Counted from the first letter of the stretch, positions 29,040-60,577 are shown. The stretch: DNA of 64,000 bases from Takakia lepidozioides (GCA_030704615.1 CM060731.1:5456001-5520000); one strand, 5' to 3'. Translations and numbers: made by a program. The notes: generated by a model from the sequence alone, not told the origin.

Positions 29040-29990
29040 CAAGCCAATGACCCATGTCAAGCAATTTAGATCCATTGCTTGACCCAACACATGTCGGCGT
29101 GATGCCTCTGACAGAGCTGGCACAGCTGTAGTGCCCGTGGCAAATCCCATTGCCCGTTCTCGCTCATCTGCATTGGGCTCCACCAATTGTTGTAGCACAC
29201 TGTCCCAAATCAACCCAGGACCATTGTCTCAAAAAGCATGAGACGAGGGAAAGCTCATGAGCATAGGCAAGGCCGCACGTGGCTGCCCCACTCGATTTAC
29301 CACTGCTAGAGGTGGACGGTCATTATGTCGCACCCTCTGTGGTTTCCTCCCTTGGTCCAAAATGCCCTCAACTGTGAGATTGGGTGGCCGTTGAATGGAA
29401 TCGTATGCTCTCTTGAGCAGCTCTGGTGGTGTAAGATTGGTCCACCACAATCGAGGTCGATGCGCTCGTGATCCCACCGCTGCTGCATCCAATAGCACCA
29501 CCGATCCAATCCAAGACCGCACCTGATGCATACTGGCCATAACCCTAGCCCAAGAGTCCCCCATAAGAGGAACATTCTCCAAGATATAGGCTAGAGGTTG
29601 CACTTGCCTCGTCTACAAGTCACGCAACACTCTCAACATCTCATAAAACAAATGCGATCGTGCATCATGCAAGCCGTTCCCATGACATGCGGGAGAGTGT
29701 CATTGGCAAGGCCATCCAGCTATCACCAAATCAATGGCACCATGTTGGTCCAATTTATCCACCCCCAACAAGGTAATGTCTGCTGGCAAGGCCTTTTGAT
29801 ACCCTTGAATTGCTGAGAGAGACAACAACTCAGGATACCGGTGTGTGAGCAAAGCGATGTGGCGCATAGAAATACGCCGAGCTATCTCATCATTCTCTAC
29901 ATATAAGTACTTGCGTACTTTAATCCCAGCTTGCAACACTCCTGCAAGCCCAGTGCTCATGCCTCCAAACAGGTCTAGCAAACAAATCCC
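29040..29990 (-). pseudogene. C5 DNA cytosine methyltransferase domain (DNMT3-like) within the gypsy polyprotein
   Basis: Motif I LLDLFGG, II YVEND, III DI, IV DLVIAGWPCQ, VI ILENV, VIII AHRPRLWWTN, IX ERERAMGF, X RRHVLGQAMD. All in one frame with in-frame stops at 29700, 29613 and 29229. Confidence 0.93.
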
Positions 29991-30128
29991 TGAGTCAGGT
30001 GGTTGCCAGGTAATGGGCACTGTATCCAAAGGAGCTAACTGAGGAGGTCCAGGTGATGTCACTGAACTCCCCTCAATTACCAATGGATAGGCCTCCTGCC
30101 ATGCTTGGTGCACATACTCGTCTGCTAC

Positions 30129-33760: not shown

Positions 33761-35111
33761 CCCTTCAAGAGCTCTTCAAGTGTCTTACAAAAGCTCCTCA
33801 AAGGACCCCCCAAAGATCCTCCAAAGGCAATACTCCTCCAGATACACCCTAGATGGCATACACTTTTAATGAAAACGTATGGTAGGCAAAGTATCTCCAC
33901 TTGTATCCATACACTGTTCACAAAAGTGTATGGTGGGGCAGAGGGAGCCCATACACAGTTTCTTGAAGAGTATGGAGACTAGGGTTTGTAGAGTATAGTA
34001 AGAAACACCTTCTTCATGGTATCTTCCCCCCTAACATGCATGCAAGATTGCATTATCTTACTTTGCAATGCATTCATCCCAAATTGACAAGTTCCTCTTG
34101 ATCTCCTTTGGATCTCATAGCAAGCTAATGTGCCCAATGACAAGCGCCAAGCCTTGCTTGAATTTGAATTTTGTATGTCATCTTCATATGCTTTCCCTTG
34201 CATGGGCTAGTCACATACACTTCCACCTCTTGACCTAGGTGTTGTCTTCATTCATCATAATATTGTGTATCCACACCTCTATTCGAGAGCTCATCTTCTC
34301 AAACTTGAAGTCACAAGCCCCAAAAAGCATCACTAGAAGCATTCGTGTCTTTTCCGATTCGACTGCATGTCCGCGACCACTCCGGGAACCACTTGGTAGT
34401 AAACGGGACTACTGGAGAGTCGAAACAGACAATGTGGGCCCACGGGGGCATTTCAGACGGCGGACAGAAGTGGGGTCAACGACTCCGGAGTCGTAGCAGA
34501 ATTCCGGGCTATTTTACGAATTGCATAAATACATAAAATTTGAAAAAGCCAAAATTACAAGTGGTTGTAATTACTGCACATGCGACTACAAATTTTCTTT
34601 CCTAATTCGATTAATGGAATAAAGATAATTATTCATTAAAGTGAATATGTAGTCGACTCAACGACTCCATGAACCACTGCGCATTCATTGCACCCATGAC
34701 TCGGTAGCACATTTGCTGACGTGGCTTTCACAAAAAGAGGTAAACAAAATGTGGCCTTGGGGGAATAGATATTTTAATACGTGCTGCCTCCACCTGGCAG
34801 AGACAAGGATGCAAGTACTGCGTCGGACATGGCGGGACGTGGGAATGGAAATCCTGACACGGCAAGGCCTTCGTATACTGTGAGCGCGCGTAGTGGCTTC
34901 TCAGAACGGTGTGACATCGGGGTCTTGGTCATTCATCATTTACAGAATGTGCTGGATGGAGGCACGATGGAGCGCGCATACGGGCATGCCCTTCTGGCAT
35001 CAATTCCCAAGTATCCACGCAAGGTGAGGCTGCTGAATTGGGTTTTGCCCGTCTAGTTTTCTGACAGCATGCTCGAAACGTTCATAGTGCCATTGAGTGG
35101 CATCGCAATAA

Positions 35112-35812
35112 TTTGATGTGTAGCTGCTTTTTCATTTCACAAGTTATGCAGAAGGCGTCACAGAAGAAGATCGCAAAGACGTCAAGGCTGAAGAATATGC
35201 CCTTTGGTTGTGAACTACAATCATATCATGCCAAACCCCATTTTCCCCACGCAGATGAGGGAGACATTCTGCATTTGCGAGTGGGACTTAATTCCTCTAA
35301 ACCCAGCTTGAAGGCAGTTGTGACACCAGAGAAACTGGAAACTACCTCCAAGAAAGTTGAAACTCGCAAGATAGTCATGTATTCGTCTCATTATCTCCAA
35401 CTGGGATTCCGAGTTATCATCCGACCCTTTACATGTGCGCTGGAATGGAGTATAATTCTGGTTTAGGCAGTTATTGCCACCAGACGTTCGCTTCTCCAAT
35501 TTTTACATTTAAGGATGTGTCTGTGTTTATGGCACTCTTTCTCCCAAGGAGGCCTGAGTACCCCCCTGTACTTGCAAGAATTTGATGTGTAGCTGCTTTT
35601 CCCTTTCATAAATTATGAAGAAGCAGTCACAGAAGAAGATCGCAAAGAGGTCAAGGCTGAAAGCGTTCATTAAGGTTGTGAACTACAATCATATCATGCC
35701 AAACCAGCGGCGGCAGATGGTGTCATGAGACATTCTGCGATTTGCGCATAGGTGGACTTAATTTTGATGTTGACTTGAAGGCAGTTGTGACACCAGTGAA
35801 ACTGGAAACTAC
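35112..35812 (+). repeat. Diverged direct duplication of ~230 bp (35112-35345 and 35580-35812) inside the CACTA
   Basis: Shared TTTGATGTGTAGCTGCTTTT..CACAGAAGAAGATCGCAAAGA..GGTTGTGAACTACAATCATATCATGCCAAACC..GAAACTGGAAACTAC. Confidence 0.85.
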
Positions 35813-36643
35813 AGGTTAGATGATGGCGTGCTGCATCGCGACATAAACCTGCATTTGACATTCAGGCTTAGGATTCATGCAATTTGGTGCTAGTCAGGCC
35901 TGCACAGTTCCAGAGCACAAGTGGGAGCCCATCCGAGGGATGGGGACCTCGTAAGTGCTTCTTCATTTTGTACTCACCTTGTTTTTGCATCGCACTTGTG
36001 CTACAAGGGGCAGAGCCATTCATTTGGCTGGAGTTCAATTCCTCTACAAGTGAGCTATTCTCGTGTCACTACAATCAGTTAGATGTGTTTAGGTGGTGGT
36101 TGCTGGATTTGCGGCTCTGGGGTGTCTTGCCAAGTGCTTGCAGGGATCAACGTTAATGTGGACGTGGCAGTACATGTAGCAAAAAAGCTCATTCGCTGGT
36201 GAAGAGACCATGTTGCAACATATGTCATGCTATTGCTTCGAGAGTGCTGCTGTTGGGCAGGTGGGAGAATGCAACAACGGTGAGAAGGAAAGCAAGGGAA
36301 GCACAAAAAGGTGTCGTTCGGTCCTGCTCCTTTGGAGACACCCCCCATTCCACTGGTCTTTGTTCCTGGAAAGCATGCAGCTGGGCCAGAAAATGCATGC
36401 ACACATTCACGTCTACTTCCCGTACATGAAGACGATCCTCTCCTCACATGTCAGAAACAATATTGGCAGAACAAAAAAGGTTTGTTCACAAGACAGTACG
36501 GACCACATACCGGGACATTATCGATACTATTAACTGTCTCGCCCTTGCGCGCTTGCAGGACTGTACAAAATGGGTTCTAAGGACAGTAAGAGTCCTTAGC
36601 ATAGCTCTCGTCTATGAGCTGCTGGCTTAATGGACACTGAGAT

Positions 36644-39600
36644 TCAGCTGGGCTCACTATCTGTATCCAAATAATCTTCCCCTTCACTACCCACATCTGC
36701 AATTTGCCTTGCGGTAATTACCAACCCTGGAATGTCTTCCTCATTAAAGGTAACTGCTCCTTCCAAAGAGACTGGTTCGGCCGTATCTGGTAGATTTTGT
36801 GGTTCCCTCAGACCCTCGTGGTCGGCATTCTCCCCTAGGTCCAGATCATGGACGTCGGCCACGACTCGTTTGGCCCGGGGGTCCTTGTGAAGAACCACCT
36901 TCCATCCCGGCGCATGGGTGTCATCTGAAAAGAAAACTTGCTCAACTTGCGATGGGAAGATGAATGGCTCTTCATCTTGTGGTAGCATTTTTCTGAAATC
37001 AGCAAGGAGGAACCCGTACTCATCCCGTTTCATGGTGGCATTCTCTCCTACCATATTGGCTTTTACCCAAGAACAACGGAATAGAATTGGCTTCACAAGA
37101 CCATAGTCTAGTTTAAGGATCTCTTTGATCACTCCTACATATTGCACATGGCATGAAATTGGATTCCGATCTCGTGCACAGCTCCTACTCTCTTGTTCAA
37201 AAAATGATGCCACTCCGCTGTCATAAGTCACCAGGAGGCTGGTGTTGGCATCGTCCACTCTATAGTGATTGCCATATGCTTTCATTGACCGGTACGAAGT
37301 GGCAATCAGCCCTGGGGGAATGACAGACTCACCATGCCCTCATCTGGTCCTCGTTCTCTGATGCGTACACTGCAATTGCAGATCTGACCCACACTGTAAA
37401 GGGCTGCAGCTCCTCCATTGTTGTGGGGTACTCCACCGGGGATCTGCGCCTACGACCGCCCCTCCGCCATGCTTTTGCAAATGCACTCCGTTCCGTTTTC
37501 AGGCGGACCTTCTCCGCTGCGTACTTTCTGGCAGAAACCAAATAGAAGCTGCAACTCAGTCCCCCTGACCAACACCGTGCTGTACATGCATGCCACATGC
37601 AGAGTGTGTGTCCTTTCAAGCACACTGTAGTGATGCAGCCTACTTCATAATCACTTGCAAGCAACAACCAAGATCTACGAAACACCCTCTGTAGTCGTCT
37701 GAAGCACCCTGTTAGTACACGATCCCACTCCCATAGTGGCCGGAATGACTTGTGACAATATATATGTAATTCCAGCATACAAAGACCATTAAGAATAGCA
37801 CAGGAGGGATGTAAGTTGGCACCCACTGTCTCCATGGTGTCATGGTTGTTGTGTTGTTCAGCACATAATCATGTGCCACATCCCGAAGGCGCGGGCTCAT
37901 GGCACGCTTTGTTCCACCACCTTCTAGGACCTCGCCTACAACTCCTTCTTCCTCGTTCTCGTCCCACACCCGTCGTTGTATTGCATCAAATGAAGACATA
38001 TACTCTGTCATGAAGCCCAGGGCTTCGTCGCGGATGTAGCCCTCCGCCATACTCCCCTCTGGCCGTGCCATGTTGCGTACATACCCCTTCAGATCCTTCA
38101 TGTACCTCTCCATGGGTACATCCACCGGCTGGCTACGGGCCCACACACATGCAACTCCTCTACAAGATGCACTAGCAAGTGCGTCATGACGTCAAAGAAT
38201 GATGGAGGGAATTCTTTCTCCAGCAAACATAAGGTCATAGCCACATCCTCATGCAACGATGTAATGTCCCTCGGATCCCACACCTTCGCACAAATCTTCC
38301 TAAACACTCGACTTACACGCATTATGGCTGTTCGAGGACCTGGCGCCATCGTACCCCGAATGCACACTGGCAAAATCTGTTGCATCATCACGTGTAGATC
38401 ATGTGACTTCATCCCCGACCATTTCTTGTTTATGGCATGCTTTTGGAAAGCACCCGAGAATCCGGTTGGCACTTTCATGGCTCCCAATGTCTTCAAAAAA
38501 TCCTCTTGCTCTGATTTGGTCAGGACGTATGATGCTGCTGGCATGAGCACTTTGCCTGGTCTATTTGGATCAGGCCTTAGCCACAGATGTGACCGTATCC
38601 CTTCAATCTCCATGTCCTTTCGTACGTTTATCGTATCCTTCTCCCCAAAGATAGTCTTCAGAATGTTCTCGCAGAAGTTCTTCTCACAATGCATGGGGTC
38701 CAGGAGGTACCGCTGCAAGAGGTTCTGAAATGCCAAATGTCCTCCCATGACACCAAGTTCTATGGGCAAAAAAAGTAGAATATGTGGCAGAAGTTGTCCA
38801 TGTTACTACATTCTGCTTTCAACAACTCCACGATCCTCTCCACAGTGAGGTGTACGACTTCAACATCTACTGCATAGTAGTTACACTGACTTAGGAGTTG
38901 GTGGAAGGACTCCTGACAGTAAAGGTAATTCCAGGAAGCACAATGTGAAAGAAAGTGAGTGAATGAATGGGGGGGGGGGGATTCATGCACCTTCCAGTAT
39001 GGCAAATCCCAAAGGATTGTCCGGCGCTTCACCCCGTGCTCCATGGCTGGATCCGCACTACTTCCGTCTCTCCCTCCAATCTCCATGAACGCCTCTTTCT
39101 CCTTTGCAAATTGCAATGTCTCCTCCGGTGTCACAACATTTGGTGCCATTCTCTTTTCAACACATCCATTGAAGTGCCTTCTTGCTCGTCGGTAGGGGTG
39201 GTTTCTTGCAAGGTAACGTCGATGCCCCATGTATATTGTCTTCCCTAGTGGCTTTGAGTGCGTGAATCCACATAGGGCCCACAAATGGGGCACCCTTTGT
39301 AGCCCTTCGTCTTGCAACCCGCAACAAGGCCATATGCGGGGAAATCGTGGATTGACCACATGAGTATGGCACGGAGGGTGAAACTCCGTTGCCCTACTGG
39401 TTTCAAAATGTCGTAAGCTTCAACTCCAATCCATAGTTCCTGTAGCTCTTCAATCAATGGTTGCAAATACACATCTATGTTTGCATTTGTCACGGACTCC
39501 TTGCCTGGAATCAAGAGAGACAACATGACAAAGAATTTCTTTGTTGTCAACCATGGTGGCAGGTTGTATGCCACCAACTGCACGGGCCATGTGGACCATG

Positions 39601-40719
39601 TGCAACTCTTTGATCCGTATGGGTTTACTCCATCCGTAGATACAGCCAATCGCACATTGCGTGGGTCCTCGGCGAAATCGGGCCAAGTTGCATCTATATG
39701 CTTCCATGCAAGGGAATCTGGGACATGCCTTACCAAACCATCGTTTGAGGCATTCCTGGAATGCCAAGTCATGAGCTCACTAATGGTCTTGCATTTGTAC
39801 ATTCGTAATAGACGGGGGATAAGGGGAAAGTGCCTCAACACCTTGGCTGGCTGTTGTAACCTGCCCACATCATGGTATCGGGCTGCACCGCATTTGGGGC
39901 ACTCCATAGCATCCTTGTACTCTCTTCTGAAAAGTACATGTCCTTTTGGACATGCATGTATTTTCACGTAGTTGAGGCCGACTTCCCAATCATTTGGTTG
40001 GCCATGTGACAGCTTTTTGGCATTTCATTTGGTTGTGGAAGCAAGTTCAGCCGAAGCAAAGAGAACAACTCGTCCACAAAATGGTCTGAGACACCGTGGG
40101 TTGTGCACAGGTTCATCAACAGCATGGTGGTAGCAAGCTTTGTGGATTTGCATCCCTCGTACAGTGGCACACATGCTTCTTCTAGTGTCATGTGTGCAGA
40201 ATTCAATTCTCCATCTCCACCTCCTTCCACGCCTTCCCCCACGTGAATGCCTTCATTTCCTGCGTCATCACCATCCCCAGTTGTCGCAGCGCCGTCCCCC
40301 TCTTCAGCATCGTCCATGATGTGGAATGCTTCCTGCAACATTCGAGTAATCTCCACCCCTCCGTCCATGCCTGGTTCATGTCCTGCGCCCATGACATAGT
40401 CCTCGTCTGGCCTGTTTGTATGGCTCCCTCGGGGGTGTGCATTGTCCAATTGTGCCCACTCCTCATCGTCTTCGTCTGCAGGTCCATCTCCAATCCACAC
40501 CCGAAATGCTTCATGTCTTTTGTGGTGAAGGAGATGTGTGCGCACACCGTCCTCAGATCTACTTGTAGTGCCCAAACAACGTTCACATGGGCATGGCATC
40601 CTTGAAAGCCCAAGGGCTCGGGCACGTGCCACTTCTCTTTCCCACAACTTGTCATCTCGGGTGTTCTGTCTACAGGGGTGATTAATTGGAAGTCCTCCGC
40701 ATGGGCGAGGGGAACTCAT
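36644..40719 (-). pseudogene. CACTA transposase TnpD (Transposase_21, DUF4218, DUF4216), spliced and frameshifted
   Basis: MPCPCERC; IHACPKG..ECPKCG; PRNVRLAVSTDGVNPY; YNLPPW; IHDFPAYG; LDPMHCEKN; MKSHDLHVMMQ; FPPSFFDVMTHL..GPV..RWMYP; RPEGSMAEGY; EPFIFPSQVEQVFF. Confidence 0.95.
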
Positions 40720-42403
40720 TTTTGTTGGGGAGCCTCTTCAATGCTGTTTGTGCACGCCGTTGCAGGGGGCCGGATTCTCCTTTGCAGAGATTCCTCAATT
40801 TGGCTCTGCCACTCCCATTTCACTACCGTCAATTCCCTCCTCCTGCAATCTCAATTTGAAAGGTTCAGCCGCACATCCTTTGGCAGAGAAGACAGTTGAC
40901 ATTTTATACCAACCGGTAGATTCCACAACATGATGAAAAGTTACACTCACCAGCAAACCATTTAAAAGCCATCACGATGCTTCCCATCATAACTAGAATC
41001 TTTTCAACAAGACACTGAGAGAAATGACCAAAATCGACTCAAACAACGACATCCTGGAAAACCACCTGTCTCTACAGTTCGTGTGTGTGTGAGGAATCGG
41101 AGGACGTACGTGGAATTTCAATTTTCACGATTGAGGACGTTGTGATCTTGGGCATATGGTTGAATGTGTATGAACTGTGTGCATTGAAGTGTGAACAACC
41201 TGACTACAAGGCCAGAACCTGCGCCACTTGTCTTAGGCCATCTCCAAATCACGTTTCGGCGGACAATCCCGTTCCGTTGCCATGAAATTGCACCGTGGCG
41301 GGAAGGGAGTCCATTTGTGTGGCTCTATCACCATGGCGGGAGGGGAGCATGTTAAAAATAGAGCATTGCCCTGCCACTTCACTCATTTGTTGTTTGCACC
41401 TTCTTCCACCATCTTTCTTACTTAATTCTGATTCTTGCAATGCTGCCCTTGAGACGGCAACTGCAAGTGACCGGATCCTTTGATCGTCGCATTCAAAGAC
41501 ACTTACGTGTAGCAGATCGCAGACCCCCAAATGCCTGGAGAGAAAGCCAGACGGCAGTCAATGCATGCACGGTTGTTTTGCACTGGTTGGGATGGAGTGG
41601 GGTGCAGAGGAGGCGTGTTGTGCCCGAGTTTGCATGCCTAGCATCCTGCAGCCAGCGGCTTTTGCACGTTGGGCAGCAGTACCCTCTGCTGTATGATTAC
41701 CATTTGTGGTAAAGACTCACCGGCCTCCCCTGTCCACTTGGGTCTTGGGACAACGACTTATGGAGTATGTAGACAAAGTTGCATGTCGCGCAGGTACATC
41801 AAAATCTCCCATGTAACATAAACCCATTTCTCATTCATGCTGCATGTGATCCACGGGGTAATTTCCATGTTCTCCCAGCTGATGTGGGTTCGCAAATTCT
41901 CGGTGTGTAGGTGTGTGTGCGAGGACCTCAACCTGGCATGGTGCGATGGGTGTCGAATGGACCCCTCTACGATGGGAGAACCACTACTACTGAATCATTT
42001 GGCAGAGCAACCACTACAGTTGAGTTTGTTTTTGCTGAATCATTTGGCAGAGCACTGTGTTCACTTCTCACATCTCATGCGCATTTTCTCCAAGAATGCA
42101 TGTTAAAGCGGAGCCATACACGGGATCATGCAGTGTGTTTCCTTCGCCTCATTTGAACGAAAAAAAATTAAGGATCCATGTCAGTTGTGTGAATCACTAC
42201 ATCTAGTTGTCTGGAGATTGTAAGTGGTTTAGGGTTTTAACATCTCAAGTCGAAAGGCCATAGTGTCGGATGCACGACACGTGTTCATATTTGAGATCAA
42301 CAAACGGCCGGATCTTCACTACAGATTGGGGGGGTGTGTGATCACACTCCCCTCCTTGTCCTTCTTTCCTCCTTGCATGTCCTTGCGTCTTCCCGCGTCT
42401 TTG

Positions 42404-42494
42404 TCTTGGTCATGGTCTATGTCCTCGCTCGTCTTCATCTTGGTCATGGTCTATGTCATCGCTCGTCTTCATCTTTGTCATGGTCTATGTCCAC
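42404..42494. repeat. 34-bp tandem repeat x ~2.7
   Basis: Unit TCTTGGTCATGGTCTATGTCCTCGCTCGTCTTCA. Confidence 0.8.
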
Positions 42495-42897
42495 GCCTAG
42501 TAAGAAGCGCTTGACCGCCGAGGCAGCATCACCTCCTCCCACTTCTGCACATTCCAGCCCGCGGTGCAAAGGAGCCCCCGCCTGGCTCGACTGAATCGGT
42601 ACAGATGGCGTCGGTGCAGAGGGAAGGCCAGAGCGGTGGCAGTCTTCGAGTTTGGATTTTGACACAAGCGATATAGCATGGGCGACGACAATGAGGTGGA
42701 GACAGTTCGGCGGAAATTGCACCTCCATCTGCAGAGTCTCTCCAAAAGGTGCGCAAACGGCACAAAACCGCTGCGCATGAGGTGAGTTCTACCCCTACTG
42801 GGTTCATGTTTTCTGGGCGTTGAGTTCTCCTGAAACTGAAACTGGGATGCACATATCCACAAAGTTGTTCAAACAGATCTCGTAGTATACAGGGCAG

Positions 42898-43970
42898 TAG
42901 AAGAAGAAGTGTTCTTCAGTTTCAATTTCCGGGTTGCGCCCTATGCAAGCTGGACATAGGCAGTCCTCCCGTTACAAGTTTTCCCATCTGCCAGTCTCTA
43001 TCCATAGGTTGTGGGGAACCCACCCTGAACCGCCCCAATGCCCTCAGAGGGAAGGAGGTAGGGGCTGAAAGGTAATTTGGTCTGAAGATTCTTCATCGCG
43101 GAGCACCAAGAATGTCTCTCGATAGAAGTGGAGCTTTTTTGAGATGGGTAGCATCCAAGTTCTCTTGACATGTAATTCCATAAGCTCTCTCCGAATGATG
43201 TCTGTTGCGGTCATGCGGATGTGATGTCCACCTCATCTGGGTTCATTGGTAATAGGAAAGCAGTAGAAAGTCCGTTACGTTTCAATAAACTGTCCACTCG
43301 AGCATACCAGGAGTTCCCGAAACCTGCAGCTTTGAGCCTCATAGATGTTGTGAGGGCCCTTGCCAATAGCCCTTTGGGGGAAGGGCCTACAATCTATGGA
43401 GAAAAGATTGTAGCTGAACTGTGCCTCGGATTGCAATGGTACACATGGAACTCTGCACCTAGGATCTGAGATGGAGTTGTGCTCCTGGCGCCAAGCATTG
43501 CGTGAGAAAAAAGATGACTGTAATGGTTCCAAATTCTTTTCCCACCAGGAGACAGGGACACCAGGTGCCCAGAATCACAACCATTGATGGTAGCAAGGCT
43601 GACGACGGTGTCAAACAGCACTTTTTGGTCGGGGGATGCCACAGATGTATCTTGCTTGCATTTGGCGTGAAGGCGGACGGGAGCCGCCTTACCTTTAGTC
43701 AATCTGTCCAAGGCAGTGGCTGCAAAGTGAAACTTGGGGGAGTGGATAACCAGACCTAGGTACCGGTATGATTTGACAATCTCAATTTCCTGCTGGTTGA
43801 AGATGAATCTACGATCAGCCTGGCCATTGAAGACCATGATCTTGGTTTGCTAAGATTGACTTGCATCCCATAGTCTTTGCAGAACTGTTCCAAAATTTTG
43901 AGATGGCGTTGCAGAAAGACTGGGGATTGTGCCAAAAGGGCAACATCATCAGCGTAGAGGAGATCTGATT
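42898..43970 (-). mobile_element. 5'-truncated, decayed LINE (RTE/L2-like RT) nested in the CACTA
   Basis: LLYADDVALLAQSP..LQRHLKILEQFCKDYGMQVNLSKTKIMVFN..YRYLG. Short (AAG)n end; possible GGGCAG TSD. Confidence 0.75.
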
Positions 43971-44073
43971 GGGCAGAAAATGAAGTTAGGTTAGCAAAAC
44001 ATCCCTGAACATGTTTTCAATTTGTGACATGGGGGAGGACATCGTGGAAAAACCTTCAGGTCTACCACTGTGT

Positions 44074-44190
44074 GCAGAGAGGGACTAGTTTTAGGTCAAG
44101 GAAATGTTGCTTTGTCATGTCATTGCACCTGCGTTGGAGTACGCATTGCTATATGCGTTGATAACTCCAACGAGGCTAGGTCTGCAATAT
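44074..44190 (+). mobile_element. Small internal fragment of the 10693-11733 LINE family
   Basis: MLLCHVIAPALEY..GTTGATAACTCCAAC.AGGCTA matches ~10700-10810. Confidence 0.65.
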
Positions 44191-44655
44191 CCTTTCAATG
44201 AATTGTGTCTGCACCTGTGTTTACCAACATTGAGAGTCTTTAGGCCTTTTGGGCTCCGTTGCTGGGCTCCGCCATACAGCCATTTGCTGATTGTGTGAAT
44301 AGATGTCCACTGGATATGTGCAAAACCCGGATGGATGTTCTGTTTCCTGGTAAGTTTCATGTGGTACTGATGTGAACCCGCCCACATTCTGTTTCTTCAC
44401 CATGAATGGGCTTACATGTTATGAGGACATTCTGTCCCTCTCCTTTTCAGTTTTTGGCTCTTGCGTTGCAGGGGAGTGGGTTTGAGGTCAGCCAATCCAT
44501 AGTTGTGCTTGTGGGATGGTTTGTGCTCTGGTGACGTTGTGTTCAGTAGGACTACAGCTGATGCACCTTGTGTGTGGGATGTTTTTGGCAGTGGAAGGGA
44601 GTGAAGCTGCAGCAAAGCACTCACAGCCACCACACAATGCCAACCAACACCAACC

Positions 44656-47035
44656 TTGGCACCCACCCCCGCCAGATGGTCTCCACAACAGAGTGCACCA
44701 TGGGGAGCCCCCCCTGCTTTGGGGTCGTGGCGCTGGCTTTCTGATGTTGCCACGTCACAATGGGGGCCTCCCACATCTCCATACGGCCCTCCCCCCTCCG
44801 GCACACATCAGTCACCCCCCACAACGTATGACGGCGCTGCTCCAGAGCATGGGGGCAAGAAATGCACATCAGAGCTGAGGAAGGAACGACGCCATGCCAT
44901 GAAACAATGGGAAGGAGATGGAGAGGGAAGGGTGGCTGCAGGGCTAAAGCGCCACAAGGTGGAGGTGCATGGAAATGGAGTCATCAATGCTGGCTGCGAA
45001 GGTAAGGAACACTGGCAGCGTGATTTGCGTGGCCTGGCATTGCGTTACCGTGACTCAAGCGTACAAGACATTGACCAACAGTCCCAGAGTGCCATGTCAA
45101 CAGTAATAGAGGGCATAAATGGAATGTACGAGTACACACCTATCCCTGCCAATTGTGATTTTATAGTGAAGCAATGTGGGAAGATAATGAAAGGAGAAAG
45201 AGCAAAACTGAAAGATAAATGGGCGAAGACTGGTGTGAGGCCAATGAACACTGAACCCGCCTATTGGGATAAGCTTGTTGCCTACTGGGAGTCCCCTCGT
45301 GGACTTGCAAAGGCTGAAGGGATGAAGCAAGCGCATGCTTGTGTCACGAACCCCTCGCGTTGGGGCCGGGCAGGAGTTGCAGGCCAAGCAGCCCGTTTGG
45401 TAATCTCCCTCACCCTCTTCTCATTGCTCTTACTTTGTGGCATGTTCTGATGGAAGAGACACCCACGAGTGGGTTTTATTGCTTGTGCAGAATTAGTTGT
45501 TATGTGATATGCAGGGCAGTGCTTTGTCCATATGCTCCTGGCATTTTGTACTGACAGTGTGTGGATGGGCAAATACAGAAAAGACGCAAAGCGCGGAGCC
45601 CGTCACTGTCCGAGCTCGGGGCGGAGTGCAAGAACGCTGCGACTGGCACCCCATCAGAGTCTGTTTTGAGCCAGGTATGTTTTGAAGTCCGGTTTCCATT
45701 CATGAATCTGTTGTTGTACTAAGATTTGGTGGGTATGTGGGGCCCCCACGCATGGTACAGGAGGGGTGTTATGCCAAACCCAACCATCTCCGAATGCCTG
45801 AAATCCTGCACATTCGGCCTCTTCTTCTGGTTTTTAACAGTACGGGTGGGTGTTTGTATGCGTAGGGAGCGAGGAACTCAATGGCAGCCCGCATCGGGGC
45901 CCTAGAGAGGCTTGCGGCTCTCTCTGCGGAGCGGGAGAGGGGAATGGAAGCACAACTGAAGAAGATAGTGGAACTCATGATGGGGCAAAAAGGGGGTGTG
46001 ACGGGTGGCATTATGGAAGACCCCCCTGCTGCGACCATTGTACCTGACAAGGAGGAAGTAATTGTAGTGGGTAGGGATGTGACAGAGGTCTGGGCTGTTG
46101 TTGATGATATTCACAGTGGGGGGCAGGGTCCACTCGTTGAAGAGGGAGAGGTCCAGCAAGTTGGTGGGGATGACATGGAGGATGGGGGGGTCATTGCTCA
46201 TGATGGGGGAAAAGGGGAAGCTGTAGGGGGAGAGGGTGGTAGTTTGCTTGGTCCAGGCTGCAGGGGGACCAAAACTTTGCCCTCCGGGGTGACTGTTGTC
46301 TCCCAACCCACTGAGGTGAGACCCCGTGACACCCCTTCAAAAGCTCCTTTCATAGAAAAGTCGAAACTAATTGTTCTAGACCTGAACGGGATCCTGTGCC
46401 ACTCTATTCCTAACTTTCAGCCCAACCCGAGGTGTCATTGGCCATGGGTGTTGACCACCAACAAGTATGTTTTCCCAAGGCCCCAGGTCTGCGAGTTTTT
46501 AAACCTTCTCTTCCGGTATTTCTACGTTGGGATATGGTCCTGTGCTTCCAAGGGGAATGTTGCAGACATCTTCAAAGTGGTGATGCAGGGGGTCGAGAGT
46601 TTTCCCCTCTTTGTGTGGTCACAAGAGGAGTGTGACCCCTTGACAGAGCCACACCCCACAAAAGGGCCTGCCGTACAGAACTTACAGAAGAGACTGTCGA
46701 GGTTGTGGTCGGAATTTTTTGGATTTAACGAATCCAACACCCTCCTAGTGGATGATTCACCACACAAGGGGAGGGGGAACTCCCCTTTGAACATGGTCCA
46801 TCCATTGTCGTTTGATGTCACTGGCAATGTCAGTGAGGGGCCCAATTCAGACTATCTTTTAGAAACAGTCTGGCCCTACTGCCAAGATTTGTTTTGCTCC
46901 AAGGATGTGCGTGTCTTCACAAGCACGCGGAAGCTGACCCCGACTGGCAGCTTGAATGTGGGAGAGGATGGGGTCATTGGGGGAAGTACTTTTGCGCCCA
47001 TGCAAGTGAAACCAACCTTACTGTTTGCAACATGA
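44656..47035 (+). CDS. CACTA TnpA-like (Ptta/En/Spm, Transposase_24-like) protein fused to an FCP1/SCP (NIF) HAD phosphatase domain. Exons ..-45399, 45558-45674, 45866-47035
   Basis: ERAKLK..RPMNTEPAYWDKLVAYWES..SRWGRAG, then two phase-0 GT-AG introns, then KLIVLDLNGIL..RPQVCEFL..VGIWSCA..LFVWSQEEC..NTLLVDDSPHK. 5' start not defined. Confidence 0.75.
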
Positions 47036-47437
47036 CATCGAAGCCAAAGTCCATGTTTGTTTTGTTCCCCCCGGATGCCCTCTCACGCAAGGCTGGCACT
47101 ATATGTTTTGCAGGGACCACATGTACAAGGAGTGGCAGTGGGGTCGAATGTGAAGAAGGTGGGTCCTGCACCTAGGACCATAGTGCTACGGCGGCAACAT
47201 TCCGGATTCCCCCCCCGGCATGAGGAGGCAGCGCCCAAGGTATGGTTGTCCCAGCCCCTCTTCGCAAACTTACTTGGTTGGTTTCCTTTATGGATACACT
47301 TCCTGAAGCATTGCAATGTGTATTCATTGCAGGTGAGCAAGAGGAGTGGGCTGTCCTTCCAGTCGATCCCAGATTTTTGACTTTTACGACTCAAAATGAG
47401 TCGTTACCCCAGTGGTAAATGACACAAATGCTTCTAG

Positions 47438-48437
47438 CATGCTCCACATAAGCAGCACTTGCTTGATCAACCATCCACCACAAAACTTAGGCAAAAAAAG
47501 GAATGAATACATGAGCTTCACCTTCCCCTTCCTTGTCTTGTCACATGCTAATGTATGGTTGAAGTTGCTATGCATGCCGTGAGCCACAATCTCCTTTCTT
47601 CATGAAGACCACCTCCAATGATCTCCCACATGTGCTCCAAGCTCTTCAATACTCTAGGCTTGGTTTCACATCATCATGGATAGAATTCTCACCCACATGC
47701 TTCCCTTTGGAGTCATCTTGAGCTTCTTGATGCTCTCCAAGTGGTTGCTTTTGTTGTCTTCAAGCCCTAGCCTATGTAGCTCCCTGGCTTTTCTTCCACA
47801 ACATGCACCACCTCATACACAAGGAATGAACTTGCTCACTTCACCTTCTAGCTCTCCTCAAGCTTGAATTGGAAGCCACACTTGGAAAGCATGCTCCACA
47901 CATGCGCCACTTGCTTGGTCAATCACTTGCTTCACCAAGAGCAATCCAAGAACTCATAGAATTAGCAAAAGCACTCCCTTCTAGCGCCGCCTTCACTTGC
48001 TTGTTTGTCAACCAAATGAAACCCCACTTGGCTTCATTTCACCATGGATAGAACAACCACTTCTTAGCTTCTCTTGAGCTACTCAATGCTCCTCAAGCTA
48101 CCCTTGTTGTACTCCTTCTATGGTGTTTCCAACCCAAGCATGTGCCGCTCTTTGGCTTCTATTTCACACCATGAATAACTAGAGCTTGCTCTTGAGACCC
48201 TAGTGTCTATCTTCTCCACACACAAGACGCTTCTCTTGTGATGCAAGAGCTCTTTTCAAAAGTTCTCCACCTCTATAGAGCAAAGTAATGCTTCTCAAAC
48301 CCTAACATCCATGTTCTCCACGCCACAAGGATTTTCCTTTGCAACACCTGCAACACCTTGCAACACAAGAGCTCTCTACTAAGCTCTCTCCAACACACAA
48401 GTGCTAAACTAACCCTTACACTCTGCACTCACAAGCA
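47438..48437 (-). mobile_element. Distal 5' leader/LTR part of gypsy A, abutting the gypsy B integrase
   Basis: Joins 34330 across the CAT TSD; same CpG-poor composition. Ends where the gypsy B integrase frame breaks (TARFL). Confidence 0.55.
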
Positions 48438-50721
48438 TAAGGAACCTTGCTGTGGACTTGGCTGTGTTGTCCCTCAGAGCTTTAGCTTCCACCCACTTCG
48501 TAGTATAATCAGTGGCTGTAATTATATACTTGTTCTGTGTATTCTTGGCCGGTGGGTTAATTGGTCCAACAAAGTCTAGTCCCCATTTCTGAAATGGTTC
48601 AGTAGGCATCGTAGGATGCAAAGCCATCTTCCCAAATCTCTGCAAAGGTCCTAGCCTCTGACATTCCTCACAACTCTGACAATACTTGTGTACATCTTTG
48701 AACAAAGTAGGCCACCAGTAACCTGCAAGTAGTATCTTCCTACTGGTAGTCTCTTCTCCAAAATGACCTCCAGCCACTCCTTTATGAACTTCCTCCAAGA
48801 CTTTATTTACTTCATGGTGGTACAAACATCGTTTAAGTACTCCATCAGGTCCTAGCTTATACATTCTGCCCCCTACCATAATATAAGGTAAAGCCTTGAT
48901 AGCGATTCTCTTCCTCTGCTCCTTACCATAACTAGGTGGGCACTGACCATGAGTAAGGTAGTATCTGATTGGCCACTGCCAATCTAACCATTCATCTGCA
49001 CTTCCTTGCACCTCCATTGCAAGTAAACTCGCATCAGGTAATGGGTTGTCTACTCCTGTGGCGGGCTCTCCTGTTGTTAGGCGTGACAAATGATCTGCCA
49101 CAAGATGCAAACGACCAGGCTTGTAAACAACTTCGAACTCAAACTCGTGCAAGATTATTAACCACCTTGCTATCCTTCCACTTATCAAAGGTTTGTTCAC
49201 CAGATATATCAGAGCCTGGTGATCCACATAAGACATAAACTTTCTTCCCAATAGGTAATGCCTGAATTTCTTGACTGCATAAATCATTGCCAGTGCTTTC
49301 TCTTTCAGTTGTGCTATAGTTCCTTTCAGCACTGTTCATCAACCTGCTAGCATAGTACATAGGTGAATCTATATTTCCTGTAACATTTTGGGCTAACACC
49401 GCTCCCAACGCTTCTCCTGAGGCATCACAGTGAACATGAAATACTACATGTCAGTGAGGATTATCAGGTGTAGTTGTTACTGACAATGTAAGTTCCTCAA
49501 AAGCCTCTTGACATTTAGCTATCCATGCAAACACTGCATCTTTCTTTAGAAGCTTGCTCAATGGTGCTGCTATCTGTGCATACCTTTTAACAAATCTTCT
49601 GTAATAACAGGTTTGTCCAAAGAATCTCTTTAGACTCTTAACATTTACTGGTGGTGGAGAGGCTTTAATGGCTTTGTCTTCCTGGGATCCACAAGAAGTC
49701 CCCTCTTACACACTATGTGTCCCAAAAGCACCCCTGAGTTCACACAGAAAGTACATTTCTCTGGATTCAGGCCCCGACCTCTCATCCTACATTTGGCCAA
49801 ACATAACTCCAATTTATGCAAGTGCTCATTCTTAGAGCTGTACACACTGAAATCATCCAAGAACACCTGCATAAAATCATCCAGATACTCATGAAAAAAT
49901 TCACTTATCACTCTCTGAAAGGTTGCTGGTGCATTACAAAGTCCAAAAGGCATGACTTTGTGTGCATAAGCACCCCAATCTGTGATGAAAGTTGTCTTTC
50001 CCTGGTCTTCTTCTGCCACTTGCACTTGATTATAACCACTGAAGCCATCCATGAATGAGTACATCTCATGGCCTGCCACAGTGTCCAATACCGCTTCTGT
50101 GAATGGCAAAGGGAAATGATCTTTCTTCGTGCAAGCATTCAACTTCTTATAGTTCACACAAACTCTCAGTTTACCATTCTTCTTGGGAACTATCACAATG
50201 GGTGACAACCAAGTTGTATACTCTATCGGGTATATAAACTTAGCCTCAGCCAACTTCTTGATCTCTTCTCCAACCTTCTATGCATAGTTGGGATTCATTC
50301 TGTACCTTGCATGTTTGATTGGTACGGACCCTAGTTCCAGTTCAATCTTATGTTGACAGATCTCAAGTGGTATCCCTTTTAGATCCTCGTAGCTCCAAGC
50401 AAATACATCTCTGTATTTGATGAACAAACTCTTAGCTTCCTCAAAGAATTCTGGCTCCAAATCAGCCCCTACCTTCACCATCCTCGGTTCCTCTTCAATT
50501 CCCACATTCACTTCTCTCACCTGCTCATCAGCTGTGATTGTCCAACCAGTCACCACTTCATCCTGTAAACTCACAGTGGCTGGTTCCTCTAGGATTTCCA
50601 TTTCTCCTTCTCTTTCTTCATAGAAATGTGGTGGGTAACTGCTTGTTTCACCTTCAATTGGTGTTGCTGTCACCACACCACAACAGATACCTTTTAAACA
50701 ACTTAGGCCTTCCAGCTGCAT
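48438..50721 (-). pseudogene. Gypsy B pol: RT, RNase H, integrase N-terminus and start of core
   Basis: [91 protein letters not shown]. Stops and frameshifts. Confidence 0.95.
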
Positions 50722-50739
50722 CTCTGCAACCTGCTCCTA

Positions 50740-53725
50740 CTATGGGTGTGCAGCGAATATGGTAGCTTCCTGCTCCTCATCCAGTCCTCCCCTCCAGTCA
50801 TACTCCCTGACCCCTCGAGGTCTTCTCGTAGCAGGTAATCTACTAGATTTCTTAGTGGTAATTTGTATCTTGTGCATCCCATCATGCACAGTTAGTAACT
50901 GGGAATTCCAGTCATGGAATACCCTGGCCTGTTTCAACCACGGACGTCCCAACAATAAGGAGTAAGCTTCCATGACTTCATCCATTTTTAACACAATTAC
51001 TGTGATCATAAAGATCATCTTTTGAATCTGTATCTTAACTCCTCTTATCAATCCCAGTGGCTGAACACTTCTTTGATCTGCCATTGTTACTGTAAATGGG
51101 GCTGGCTTCATGTTACTAAGACCAAGCTTCTGCCTTAATTGGTCTGTCACGATGTTCACTCCAGAGCCTCCATCTATCAATACATCAGTTAGTTCTGTGC
51201 TTCCAATTCTCAATTGGATTACTTGGATAGAATCATCAAAGTCCATGATTGTTTCTCGCCCTTCCGGCTTCACATTATAACTGGTCACCTTGCTGTTCAG
51301 GTCTGTGTTCCCTGTCACATGGGCAATTTGATTGATTGCTTGATATAGCCTCTGTCTACAATAAGGTACCACAGCCAATAGCTGTCCAATGGTAATCTCC
51401 GCTTTGGACTGGCATATTACTTCAGCCAAAGTCCCTTCATTACTCTGCATGTCTGCAGCTTCTTTCTTCCCTTCATCCTCACTCACTTCTTCTTCTCCAT
51501 CAGAATCAGAGGAATCTGCCACAGGAATATTAGTACTCTTCTGCATTTCCCTTATGGTATCTGTCACTTCCTTGTGCAGTTCCTTCTCATCTCTCCAAGT
51601 CTCATCATCTTCAGGCACATCACTGCCATCTTCATTATTATCTTCTTCCTCATCTAGTGGAGGTATTAGTTTGGCTTTGCTTCTCGTTACTATCATTGTA
51701 CTTACTTCTGGTACAACACATGGCCTAACCATGTGAGCTGCCACCACTGACCCCTCATTCATAGGAGCTCTCATCTCATTCTGGTGTCTGATCCAGAATG
51801 GACAGGCTGCCTTGCGATGGCCTGCCTGATTACAACAGTAACACAATTCTTCCCCATTAGGTCCTCGCCCTTGGTCTGTTTTGGAATTGTTTCTGTAATC
51901 CTGATTCCCTGGCTGGTAATTCCCCCTTGGATTACCCTGATAGTTGCCTCTGGAATTTCCTTGGTAATTCCCTCTTGAATTACCTCTCCCTTCCATGCCA
52001 TTGTTATAACCACCAGGCCTACCATAGTGGTCCTGATCACTATTTCTTCTTGGCTGGGGCTGCACTTGATGCACCCTTACTTGCCTAGGTTCTCTAGCTG
52101 TTGTCCTTCTGTTGTAGTAACAATTCTCAGTAGAATGGTTATCCATTTTATAGATAGTACAGTGTTTCTCCTTCATGTGGCATTCAGTGGTGGTATGGCC
52201 TTCATTCTGGCACTTTGCACACCAAACACCCTTCCTCCAATGTGTTGCAGCCTCCATGGCATACTTCTTCAAGATTTCTTCTAATCTTTTCTCATAGTTA
52301 TCCCTCTTCAACTTCTCCTTTCTCTTACTCTTCCTTTTCAGCTCTTGCTCTTCTTCCTCATCTGACTCATCCTCAGAGTCCTCATCATCCCTTTTCTCTC
52401 TCCTGAGCATTCCCAATTGCTCAATTCTGTTCGCTGTTTCAAATGCCTCCTCCACTGTATTATGGGGTAACATATCCACTTTCTTTTGCAAGTCTGGTCT
52501 TAGTCCACTCACAAACCAAGTCTTCTGTAAACCTGGTGCTGGTATAGCAGCCAACTTTTTCATCATCAATTCCATTTTTTCCATATACTCCTCAACAGTT
52601 TCATGCTTCTTTTGCTTTAACTGTTGTAAACTTCCATACACTTCATCCTCAGTTTTACTTGTCCTGAACCTATTTCGGAATGTTGTATTCAAGCCATTCC
52701 AGGTTAGGAAATGATTATCACGGAATCTTGCATACCATTCACTTGCTTTCTTGATAAGTGAACAAGGAAACAATCTCATCTTGGCATCATCGCCATTCTC
52801 ATTGTTCACAATACACATGTGCTCAAATTGGCTAATGTGTACATCAGGATCCCCGAATATATTGGAAAAGGTGGTTTTGCCCGTGTTGGTTGTAACGCCA
52901 TCTGTGGCCCTACCTTTTGCCCACTGACAGATGCTGGCCCCCTTGCTGGTGCTGGTCCTTGAGGACCTGTTGTAGTTGTGGTGGATCTTCCACCCAGTGG
53001 TGGCCCCTGAGCACTCCCTGCTACTGGCCCCACGATATTCACAGTATTCCCAGCTCCAGTTGCACTTACTTCCCACACTCCCTGTCCCCCCAGAGCCAGA
53101 TCCAGGCTGCCCGCCTGATCCCCCTGAGCCGACACCTTCGTTGGCCTGTGATCCAAGTGCTCCACTTGATCCAGGTCCAACGGGTTGGGATGTCCTAGTT
53201 GTAGTCTCAACCTCAGGTGTTGGTTCTACTTCTTCATACTCTTCCTCTTCCAATTTCTTCTCTCTGTTTTCATCCTCCAAGTTCTGCCCTTGGGTTTCTT
53301 CTTCACTCATGTAACTCAACTGCAATGGTGTTGGAGAGTCTGAACTCTCCGTTGGCTCTGCCACATCCTCTCCTCCTTCCATTTCAGAAACTGGAGTTCT
53401 TGCTTTTGGTGTTCCATGCCAACTCTTATCAAAGATTTCTGTCAAATCTTTTATCCAGGGATGTACCTCAGATCTTTCACCTCGTGGTTGATCTTCTTCC
53501 CGTACCAATTCCCTTAATCTTTCTTGCAAAGAAAAAAGAAGGAGTGGCATCCAACTCTAGTTCTTCCGGTATGGGTGATGTACTCTCTGATCTTAATGGT
53601 GTGAGAGGTCCAGATGATTCCCCTATGTCTATTCCTCTCTCCCAAAGATATGGATAATTAGCTTTCAGATAACTTTCTCTTTTTGCTAAATATCTCTGGA
53701 GTCTAGCTTCTCTTTCATCACTCAT
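50740..53725 (-). pseudogene. Gypsy B Gag-protease (frameshifted N-terminus)
   Basis: DPDVHISQF..KMRLFPCSL..ASEWY; LKQKKHETVEEY; three CCHC-type knuckles; protease VLIDGGSGVNIV..LLLGRPWL. Confidence 0.9.
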
Positions 53726-57384: not shown

Positions 57385-58330
57385 AGGCCTTCATCATTGA
57401 GGCCATTCTTGGCATCAACACCTGAACCTCACTCGACGCATTTGGCGCTACTAATGTTGATACATATTACCTTTGTAAATGGGCAGGCTTTTCTACAGAA
57501 CACAACACGTGGCAAATCGAAGAAGACCTCTTTGGGACCCACGAAGACTGCGACCCCATCCATAACCGTGATCTTCTAATCAGATTCCACAAACGAACTA
57601 ACACCAAATATCTAGCACACACCCACCAACACCACTCTTCACAAACCCAATTGATAGACGTCCGTTACATCCGCACCTCCCTAGCTGCCCCAAATTTGCA
57701 TATACAAACCACCGAATGTAACCCAAACAAATACATTGTGCATGATTCCTCCATCATATGCCCTAGTCCTAGTTTGTCCAACATATACACACTCAGCAGC
57801 AATTTCGCCGGGTCAATTTCCAGCACCAGACTTGCCTGGCTCTGGTCTCAATACTCCACTTCCACCTCTCACACTACCCAATTACAACCGCCAAAGCAAG
57901 ACTTTGCCACAGAGGTCTGCTGGCTTATAGACCGGTACCTTCGCGACACACCCCCCCCACAAAACCCCGCACCCTCGATAAACTAGCCCTTGCATATACT
58001 CATAGCACCATCTCACCAAATATCCTCAAACTTCTCATCACCACATTTCAGCTTATACACTCATACTATTCTAGCCCACTCACGCGCCCCCTTGAGCTCT
58101 CCTCCTATGACAGCCCGCACCCCAGAGACTGTGTATTCGGAGCCCTTGGTTCCGCTACCCAACATACTTGGTCCGGAGGTGGCCTCGCGCACCCACCACC
58201 CGGACCCCTCACCCATGAGGCTCTACAATGGGCGCGCCTCGCCGCCTATTCTTCCCCCTTTGCCATCACTATCCTTATCCTCACTCAACAAAGCTTACCT
58301 AATCACGACCACCCCTTCTCCAACTCCCCT
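57385..58330 (+). mobile_element. Dualen-like LINE fragment: chromodomain plus adenine-MTase-like segment
   Basis: FIIEAILG..YYLCKWAGFSTEHNTWQIEEDL (57390-57530). YYSSPLT..YDSPHPRDCVFGALGSATQHTWSGGGLAHPP..EALQWARLAA..ITILIL (58064-58282). These domains are missed or cut short by the ORF track. Confidence 0.65.
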
Positions 58331-58419: not shown

Positions 58420-60577
58420 TACCTGACAGAGTTGGAAGGCAAGAAGGCAGGCAAAGAAGGCATTGATGGAGATCAAGAGTTGCAAATGTTGGAGACACAT
58501 TTGCAGGAGTTACGAAAGCAAGGTGCCGCTTGGAGACCACACGATCGGAACTCACCCACTTGGGCGTTCTCCAAGATGAACAACAATCAGCCAGTTGATT
58601 GCAATGTAAGTGAGGTCATGCGATGTATAGTATGTCACAGTGAGACAGTGGTCCCAGAAATTTTGGCATTGCGAACCAGATGTTGAAAAGGCTTGATAAC
58701 TTATTTCAAGCAAAAATATGGAATAACTGCGATGAAGAAGCATGTAGAAGTGGAACGAAGAGTCACCGTAAAGGTCCATTAAAGTGTGAGTCAGCAAAGA
58801 ACCGACACTGCCATTTCAAGGTTTTTCTCCTTTGTTGATCCTTTCAAGAAAGACCATGCAACACAAAAGGGTTTTCTGGAAGATGTGATGTTGTAGTGAA
58901 GAACCTACTCTTAGTTCATGCTTGTCAGCAACTTGCACTTTTGATCTTTGGATGTCCAAAGGGGCTTATGACATATTTGTAGTTGTTGTGAAATTTCTTC
59001 AAGTGAGTGGGAACCGAAACATGTTGCAATAGGTCTCTTTGAAGCCAGGGAGACCACTGGGGCAGCCATGGAGCCCTGCAAAATTACAGGAGTTGCTTGA
59101 CAAATTTAAGCTTAAAAAAAAGATCATATGTTACGTAAAGGATGAGGGTGCCAATCTGGAAATATGTGCTACAACAATGAGTACAGTTGTTTCATGTGAT
59201 TCTTTGGGCATCTCCGAGCCATTCTCCGGGGCTTGCTTTGGACATGCCCTATCAAAGGTTTGTCAGTATGCAACTACTGATGACAAGGTTGCTGAAGGCT
59301 TTGACTATGCATCCATCAAAGCTGCACAAGCCGACATTCAGAAGTGTATCACATGGCCAAAAAAATCAGGGAAAGTGCGGAGAGAGTGGGACAAAGCTTG
59401 TATAGAATGTGGGATGAGGCCACGAAAATTGAATACACGGGTGAAAACCAGGTCTGATTTAGATTCCTTTCAAGCTTATATGTGACTTCTTTCATTTTTG
59501 TGAGTCTTCTTTGCCATGTTTTAGGTTCCTTGCCATAGCTCGAACTGATATGGTTTTTTCAATTTAGGTTTGCAAGTCGGGTATTCCTATTTCAGGATGT
59601 TCTTTTGTACCAAACAGCCATAGTTCTTTGTTATTCGCGCCAATCTTTGGCATTACAGGATAATGTTCCTCCTCCACGAACATGGGTTGTCTATGAAGTT
59701 GTGGTGAAAGTCTTGTCACCTATAGTAACCAATTGTGTATTGAATCAGAGCCAAGGACATTGGTTGTTGGGGGATGCTTTACAATTTGTGATATCAACAT
59801 GCCACGAATGTTAAGAAGAGCTTTCAATCAGGGCTATTCTAGATCCACGATCATCACTTTTTGATGATGAATTAGCAGAGCTCATTGTGAACATGAAACG
59901 ACAAATTGTTCAAACCCTCTTACCATTCATCTCTTTCCTGAAGTAAGTTTGAGAAGAGAAAAAACCACAACCTGCTAGCTTTGATGCTAGATCCTAGATT
60001 CAAGGGATTGGGAATGATCACCACATTCGTAGGTCGTGAAAATGCTTTCATCTTGGTTACCGAATATGACCAGAAGCTCTTATTGCCCTTACTAAAGCAA
60101 GGTTACAACATATTGGTGCCCACGTCATCGATTGAGCCTGAAGTACAGCCTTCAAGCTCTGTGGAGAATATTCACGACTTGTTCCAGACATGGAAACAAG
60201 TGCAGACACGCTGAAAGATATTGTGTCGAGAGAGCTATCGGGATTTTGTCATTACCTTGTTGAATGTGCTTTGTCTTGGTTGTGGAGCAATGAGCACAAG
60301 TTTCCAACAATTGGTATGTTAGCTAGACAAATTCTTGGCATTCCAGGAGTCAAATCGAGACGGAAAGAATATTTTCATTGCAGGTTTGTTGATTGCCCTT
60401 CGTAGATGTCGACTACAAACATATCACTTGGACCAAATGATCTTTATTGGCAAGAATTGGCCAAGCGACCCTCGTTCTGGATGTGAGAAGCCAAGTGACG
60501 TTGCAAGTATGTGCGAGGCTGAAGTAGATTTGACCGAGGAGCTTGACGCTGAATTCAGGAATGAAGTTGAACGTTAA
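58420..60577 (+). pseudogene. hAT transposase (BED finger, DDE core, dimerization domain), decayed
   Basis: SPTWAF..MRCIVCH..AMKKHV; FDLWMSKG; YVKDEGANL; CFGHALSK; MLDPRFK; EHKFPTIGMLARQILGIP..ETERIFS..RRCRL..KNWPSDPR. Intron ~59452-59568; many frameshifts. Confidence 0.9.

Follow-up and report, generated by a model that had tools for sequence, protein, structure and literature searches.

The stretch of 64,000 nucleotides of Takakia lepidozioides DNA analysed here (the window) contains a CACTA element of 13.1 kb (34331-47437), flanked by a 3-bp CAT target-site duplication (34328-34330 and 47438-47440). The left TIR (34331-34349, plus strand) starts with CACTA and is complementary at 16 of 17 bases to the right TIR (47421-47437, minus strand), whose final two bases are absent in the window copy and present elsewhere, other contigs reading TG after 47437. 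Contigs of public runs, compared with 34000-48500 of the window, include the empty site (joint 34325->47436) in the DNA runs X2 and X3. Five subterminal CGACTC/GAGTCG hexamers, some of them arranged as inverted pairs, are located at 34417-34667 and represent candidate binding sites of a TnpA-like protein; a further inverted pair lies at 47386-47404, and the two ends hold 7 of the 9 copies in the element, for a motif that was picked post hoc. With CACTA termini, a 3-bp duplication, a TNP2/TnpD transposase and subterminal repeats, the element belongs to the CACTA/En-Spm superfamily. It resembles En/Spm in these features, in its PF02992/PF13960/PF13952/PF13963 transposase and in a second gene with PF03004-bearing homologs, and differs from it in that the two genes are arranged head to head and the second one includes a NIF domain.

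The transposase gene TnpD/TNP2 (36644-40737, minus strand; PF13963, PF02992 at E 1.9e-59, PF13960 and PF13952) is distributed over several frames by introns and by at least one copy-specific frameshift. At the site of this shift, 39981, family contigs have one base more than the window copy, and most of the family's depth lacks the shift (31.5 of 45.8 in X2, 1663 of 1895 in X3). The TnpA-like gene lies on the plus strand, opposite to TnpD, an arrangement not mentioned in the original prediction. Between the divergent genes, 42387-42496 consists of three 34-nt tandem copies, and family contigs are shorter there (joint 42374->42422). Fragments of a captured ribosomal protein L27e gene (RPL27), decayed by stops and shifts and duplicated, occupy 34960-35812 (plus strand; PF01777 E 4e-9 on 35618-35695). 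There are two of these partly duplicated fragments, 34975-35646 is skipped in some copies, and the decay extends to family DNA, where a contig over 35307-35661 is identical to the window. A LINE remnant (42800-44400, minus strand; RVT_1 E 5.7e-8; repeat families D5, D14 and D18; raised contig depth) lies in the presumed first intron of the TnpA-like gene. The surroundings of the element are retrotransposon-like DNA, and a Gypsy-type retrotransposon with gag, protease, RT, RNase H and integrase (48409-53556, minus strand) adjoins its right end.

We read the element as a member of a multi-copy family, because the small contig set of run X1 (1.9 Mb in total) holds both a 1861-nt contig over 44991-46851, with 21 differences and zero gaps, and a second contig that stops one base beyond the right TIR, as many different flanks would produce; contig depth is not equated with copy number. 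At 47356, contigs of X1 and X2 show that other copies have at least 1-1.5 kb which the window copy lacks, and this segment may encode the remainder of the TnpA-like protein. Two further runs from two studies, X11 and X12, carry the label 'RNA?', which is a guess, and their transcripts come from a sister subfamily of about 87% identity rather than from the window copy. The runs listed as containing the sequence include none registered as RNA. The contigs with this label leave most of the length of TnpD uncovered, a pattern that is not interpretable.

All exons of the TnpA-like gene are on the plus strand. A probable first exon (42487-42781), broken in the window copy, is predicted from the sequence by its ATG at 42487 and a phase-0 donor GT at 42782; the RNA? 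contigs show no joint that supports it. Exon 1 (44592-45399) encodes a Pro-rich arm followed by the TnpA-like helical domain (44842-45399), and exon 2 (45558-45674) comprises 117 nt in phase 0/0. The 5' part of exon 3 (45866-46315), a short coiled-coil-like helix and a Gly/Glu-rich linker, ends at a strong alternative phase-0 donor, GAG|GTGAGA (GT 46316), immediately upstream of the 3' part (46316-47035), which encodes an intronless DLNG-type NIF/HAD domain (core about 46360-46920) with a weaker phase-0 donor at 47006, and the stop. The original prediction of three phase-0 exons in one frame holds: donors (GT at 45400 and 45675) and acceptors (AG at 45556-45557 and 45864-45865) are canonical, the segments 44605-45399, 45558-45674 and 45866-47035 are each open in phase 0, and stop codons interrupt all three frames of both introns. 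Likewise, the gene lies inside the TIRs, as had been claimed, between the CACTA at 34331 and the right end at 47437, within a CAT duplication whose empty site occurs in DNA contigs.

The proposed ends of the gene have to be revised. An exon had been taken to begin at 44656, where the window reads TTG, no start codon, and the first in-frame ATG follows about 250 nt downstream. Since DNA contigs of X1 and X8 have an extra base at 44596 and another at 44665, where the window copy has single-base gaps, the TnpA-like gene is frameshifted at its 5' end in the window copy. The segment 45866-47035 is open and in phase as predicted but may not be the last exon: a candidate exon of 126 nt (47114-47239, open, phase 0/0) may follow, as may another of which the start is present (47333-47356), cut where other copies continue. 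Given the donors at 46316 and 47006 and these phase-0 candidates, the NIF domain may be terminal, internal or skipped, and an isoform that skips it via donor 46316 likely co-exists with the fusion. The window copy is damaged or dead, with both TnpD and the TnpA-like gene broken, and the breaks tested (39981, 44596 and 44665) are missing from family contigs, so that the contrast originally drawn between an intact fusion and a frameshifted TnpD falls.

The frame does end in a NIF domain, as predicted: PF03031 matches within 45866-47035 at E 1.2e-13 (51.5 bits, cut-off 21.8), with the motifs LDLNGIL, RP, WS, K and VDDS. The nucleophile Asp20, Ser73 of motif II, Lys123 of motif III and Asp144-Asp145 of motif IV are retained. 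Motif I reads DLNGI and departs from DxDx(T/V), as the second Asp, the general acid, is changed to Asn and the Thr to Ile; in Scp1 this second Asp, Asp98, assists catalysis, according to PMC7281111. The domain scores 13-16 bits against TIGR02251/02245, whose cut-offs are 139-192 (TIGR02251: 15.8 versus 139), and has no match to TIGR02250, and the proposed label 'FCP1/SCP-type' therefore does not apply. Its structural model (pLDDT 88.7) has Scp1 as the top Foldseek match (E 9.5e-10) and shares the fold of Scp1/2, CTDNEP1, Tim50 and UBLCP1 at TM 0.6-0.68. A sequence profile of the subfamily, compared with solved structures, comes closest to UBLCP1 (E 5.6e-11; Scp1 2e-7). Unlike FCP1, SCP1, UBLCP1 and Tim50, the transposon domain has DxNxI instead of DxDx(T/V), and Pfam finds no BRCT or UBL domain beside it.

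These features bear on the idea that the NIF domain is an active FCP1/SCP-like phosphatase of the Pol II CTD that tunes the transcription of its own element, which we consider quite unlikely. Scp1 and Scp2 as top fold matches and the retention of 4 of 5 catalytic positions would fit such an enzyme, yet the altered motif I, the scores far under the TIGR cut-offs and the greater profile similarity to UBLCP1 argue against it. The suggested link to the CTD is unsupported, because DLNG defines a separate subfamily and the general acid is absent, and the CTD is one candidate substrate among others, and a doubtful one. DLNG had also been described as a variant of DxDxT. As DxNG is common to 30 of 30 NIF homologs retrieved (from plants, diatom-like and other sources, with a word-based search that favours such a result), it is better understood as a subfamily mark; judged by these homologs, DLNG denotes a NIF subfamily separate from FCP1/SCP and is not a peculiarity of the window copy.

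Plant and diatom proteins annotated with an 'FCP1 homology domain' belong to the same DLNG type and share the motifs LDLNG, RP, W[ST], FxWxQxxC, KxL and NTLLxDDSPxK with the transposon domain. The latter differs from them in being only 30-40% identical, in its long branch without supported placement, and in being intronless and located behind a transposon domain. Protein searches with the NIF domain retrieved only homologs of 23-40% identity, none of them with a TnpA-like Pfam domain, and in a tree of 49 rows, 7 of which are less than half filled, the transposon domain sits on a branch of 2.15 in no supported set. To our knowledge, no activity is established for any DLNG-type protein, and the literature searched contained no assay of the subfamily. 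We take two Arabidopsis genes to be of DLNG type, and the subfamily of PF03031 presumably includes S. pombe C1271.03c-like proteins. The same two Arabidopsis genes appear among the genes tested in yeast in PMC5485742.

Large-virus contigs of IMG/VR (L002-L024), which reach 204 kb and include two with the label GVMAG, also have DLNG-type NIF genes that stand alone and encode about 160-190 aa. These genes are 27-31% identical to the transposon domain and do not group with it; one of them, L006:7992-8519, matches PF03031 at E 1.3e-15, and DxNG is present in 21 of the 24 viral-contig loci fetched. Because the DLNG module occurs in large-virus contigs too, it may have been taken up by selfish elements on more than one occasion. 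The single metagenome match of the NIF protein (L001), AT-rich and without an open frame, was rejected as chance, and PHROGs yielded no match. A bacterial donor is unsupported, since the prokaryote genome scan gave a single match of 22 residues (E 4e-4), which was rejected.

The likeness of exon 1 to TnpA derives from its homologs. An exhaustive search recovered 112 of them, 51 with PF03004 at E<=0.01, of which 2 exceed the curated cut-off, and an Atlas row at 0.91 has PF03004 in 32% of its members. The window's exon 1 has no Pfam match at all, and PF03004 is absent at E<=0.1, so that of the two Pfam domains expected in the spliced product PF03031 was found and PF03004 was not. A word-based search for exon 1 among longer proteins gave no match, which is weak evidence, and the ORF at 24318-25412, considered as a relative of exon 1, is not related. 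Names are available for ten of the 18 homologs looked up: these are proteins of Riccia, Ceratodon, Calypogeia and Sphagnum, two of which bear the name DUF8039 domain-containing. Liverworts and mosses commonly have TnpA-like proteins (homologs P0031-P0142). Examined for the tandem tri-helical HTH DNA-binding domain of TnpA-like proteins, the predicted structure of exon 1 (pLDDT 93) is mostly helical, with two sets of three helices, and its fold matches are BEN/Myb-like at background level (Z 4-4.9); Foldseek with this model returned no match at E<=0.001. Differences between the subfamilies in exon 1 fall at third codon positions in 21 of 38 listed cases (p 0.004; 44863-45154, with no NIF rows listed), and in 19 of 33 after removal of the five differences common to DNA runs.

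None of the 112 exon-1 homologs carries a NIF domain, and most of them are unable to reveal a fusion, since only 13 extend at least 150 residues past the domain. Related TnpA proteins have another small C-terminal domain, of the DUF8039 type, at the position of NIF, and a profile of this domain from 4 homologs had no match within the window. The NIF-fold domain of Tim50 acts as a non-catalytic protein-protein adaptor, and the transposon's NIF domain could similarly serve transposition, by end pairing or TnpD binding, instead of or beside the DUF8039-type domain and without any transcriptional role. The change of the general acid to Asn, the different small domain in related proteins, its missing match in the window and the presence of Tim50 among the fold matches are all compatible with such an adaptor. 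We nevertheless regard it as rather improbable: the nucleophile, the Lys and the Asp pair of motif IV are all retained, which a scaffold would not require. Moreover, NIF need not have replaced the DUF8039-type domain, for other copies may still encode it in the segment deleted at 47356.

Splicing of the TnpA-like gene of this CACTA element towards NIF, in frame, is supported by an RNA? contig of X12, which covers 44950-45399, continues with 94 other letters and resumes at 45864-45918. Because it leaves at 45399 and rejoins at 45864, it confirms the outer splice sites and indicates a diverged middle exon of about 96 nt, in frame, in the sister subfamily. The RNA junction expected from the original prediction is thus present from exon 1 to exon 3 in that subfamily, but the spliced contig ends at 45918, and no RNA? 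contig of X11 or X12 joins exon 1 to NIF. Contigs of both runs also cover 45923-46077 and the start of NIF (46310-46481) at 84-87%, the level of exon 1, and one of those at the NIF start includes about 31 letters upstream of donor 46316; the linker and the introns do not align at 80% between the subfamilies. The cassette from exon 1 to NIF is a feature of the family, as it occurs in the DNA of several runs and in the 87% subfamily. Run X8, labelled as another organism, matches exon 1 with its flanks in three pieces (95-98%) and NIF in none.

The missing joint would be expected if NIF were passenger sequence inserted in frame into an intron downstream of donor 46316; functional TnpA would then be made without it, and read-through would yield the fusion as a minor product at most. 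The strong donor right before NIF and the phase-0 exon candidates at 47114 and 47333 would suit this explanation, as would the neutral capture of other DNA by the element (RPL27, LINE). We judge it improbable all the same, for NIF aligns across the subfamilies at exon 1's 87%, which true introns do not, and contigs of two studies extend over its start, in one case from upstream of the donor. In addition, the 240 codons of 46316-47032 are open, which none of 20,000 base shuffles reproduced, and NIF, with a mean identity of 31% to 10 homologs, retains 30 of the 33 columns that are conserved among them (and 26 of 28 columns), although these homologs were chosen by likeness to the query and host selection before capture is indistinguishable from later selection within the element. 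Three conserved columns are altered in the window copy (S74C, L95P and P154S).

The original prediction named as an alternative that one copy had recently acquired a host gene by neutral capture, an event to be recognised by missing junction reads, single-copy presence and near identity to a host gene. What we found was a junction contig, a cassette present in several copies and, in the two RNA?-labelled runs, no host transcript of at least 80% identity spanning NIF. CACTA elements do take up host DNA, as PMC13317346 describes, and the present one took up RPL27. Nevertheless, the occurrence of the cassette in the family DNA of more than one run and in the 87% subfamily, and a highest identity of only about 40% to any protein retrieved, make a single-copy neutral capture very unlikely. 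A recent capture of NIF is in itself unlikely, because none of the RNA? contigs extends over NIF at 80% identity or more in the manner of a host mRNA. Two runs contribute RNA? contigs, of 1248 and 624 nt, whose match is confined to motif IV (46732-46786, 55 nt) and which continue into other NIF-like sequence; they represent a more distant expressed NIF gene, of the host or of a transposon.

We therefore favour the explanation that a TnpA-type domain is spliced in frame to an intact DLNG-type NIF domain, which selection has kept as a tethered module that binds phosphoproteins or acts as a slow phosphatase (probability roughly 0.55). That a single polypeptide contains both the TnpA-like and the NIF domain is probable. 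It is likely that the family has kept NIF under selection, a view suggested by the retained motifs, by a divergence between subfamilies equal to that of exon 1 and by the decay of the RPL27 cargo: within the same element, the NIF motifs were retained while the RPL27 fragments decayed.

As to mechanism, we favour a DNA-tethered phosphoprotein trap or slow phosphatase, because the nucleophile and the metal site are kept and the general acid is missing. Of the two activities considered in the original prediction, a phospho-peptide trap would suit these residues better than a phosphatase. By analogy with angiosperm TnpA, which binds its own motifs, the helical exon-1 domain may bind the subterminal CGACTC repeats and would thereby bring the NIF module to the ends of the element. 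Tethered there, the module could hold, or slowly dephosphorylate, a host nuclear phosphoprotein, and this activity might help the family's own transcription or its escape from silencing. More tentatively, bryophyte CACTA TnpA proteins may possess their own phospho-signalling effector, a tethered DLNG HAD module that would act on a host phosphoprotein of transcription or chromatin and be switched by the alternative donor. If this were true, a TnpA-borne phospho-signalling effector would constitute a new kind of transposon counter-silencing.

Enzyme cargo known on accessory proteins of plant DNA transposons is mostly Ulp1 SUMO protease. The statement that CACTA accessory genes 'typically' carry Ulp1 was overstated, as Table S6 of PMC12973397 gives a figure of 77 for Peptidase_C48 beside 775 active CACTA clusters. 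Two supplements of the same survey, which encompasses 1007 genomes and 775 CACTA clusters, contain no occurrence of 'NIF' or 'PF03031'. In PMC13317346, the Ulp1 (Peptidase_C48) domains carried by CACTA and MULE elements, KAONASHI/VANC-Ulp1 among them, are described as long kept and of unknown function. The cassette described here resembles this cargo in that a host-type enzyme domain is fused to an accessory or anti-silencing protein of a transposon and maintained for long, and differs from it in that the cargo has a HAD phosphatase fold with a non-canonical catalytic motif, while Ulp1 is a SUMO protease. Transposon-related and phosphatase domains are also joined in the MAIL3-type PMD-PP7 and MAIN/MAIL1-PP7L systems, with a link to transposon silencing, according to PMC5418596 and PMC7156037; those are host genes with PPP-family phosphatases that act in silencing, whereas the present module is transposon-borne and of the HAD fold. 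We found no published report of NIF or phosphatase cargo on a CACTA TnpA, although subscription journals, Repbase and bioRxiv supplements, which were outside the scope of the search, could hold one.

According to a preprint (bioRxiv 10.64898/2026.08.24.746577), Arabidopsis TnpA recognises motifs clustered at the ends of elements, where its binding leads to local hypomethylation and to activation; some TnpA genes there stand apart from the transposase gene, with a start of their own. TnpA-like proteins appear limited to flowering plants in the reference set of that preprint, in contrast to the named exon-1 homologs of our study, which are bryophyte proteins. TnpA-type regulators would thus extend to bryophyte-like plants. 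If maintained, the phosphatase-fold module of TnpA would furthermore add phosphorylation to the host pathways tapped by transposons and give the element its own means of acting on phosphorylated host proteins. Such a module would also make the widespread DLNG subfamily accessible to testing.

Several other features of the window deserve mention. In a retrotransposon, downstream of gag (PF03732, 31546-32904), an open frame at 29700-30128 (minus strand) resembles motif I of DNA cytosine methyltransferases by eye and has no Pfam match. A chromodomain frame (PF00385) is located at 57426-57986, and a frame at 59033-59485 looks hAT-like by eye, with no Pfam match. Arrays of palindromic motifs of about 21-29 nt, spaced by 64-67 nt (families D1, D4, D8 and D9), occupy 24003-26704 and 19175-19499 and are possibly the ends of another DNA transposon.
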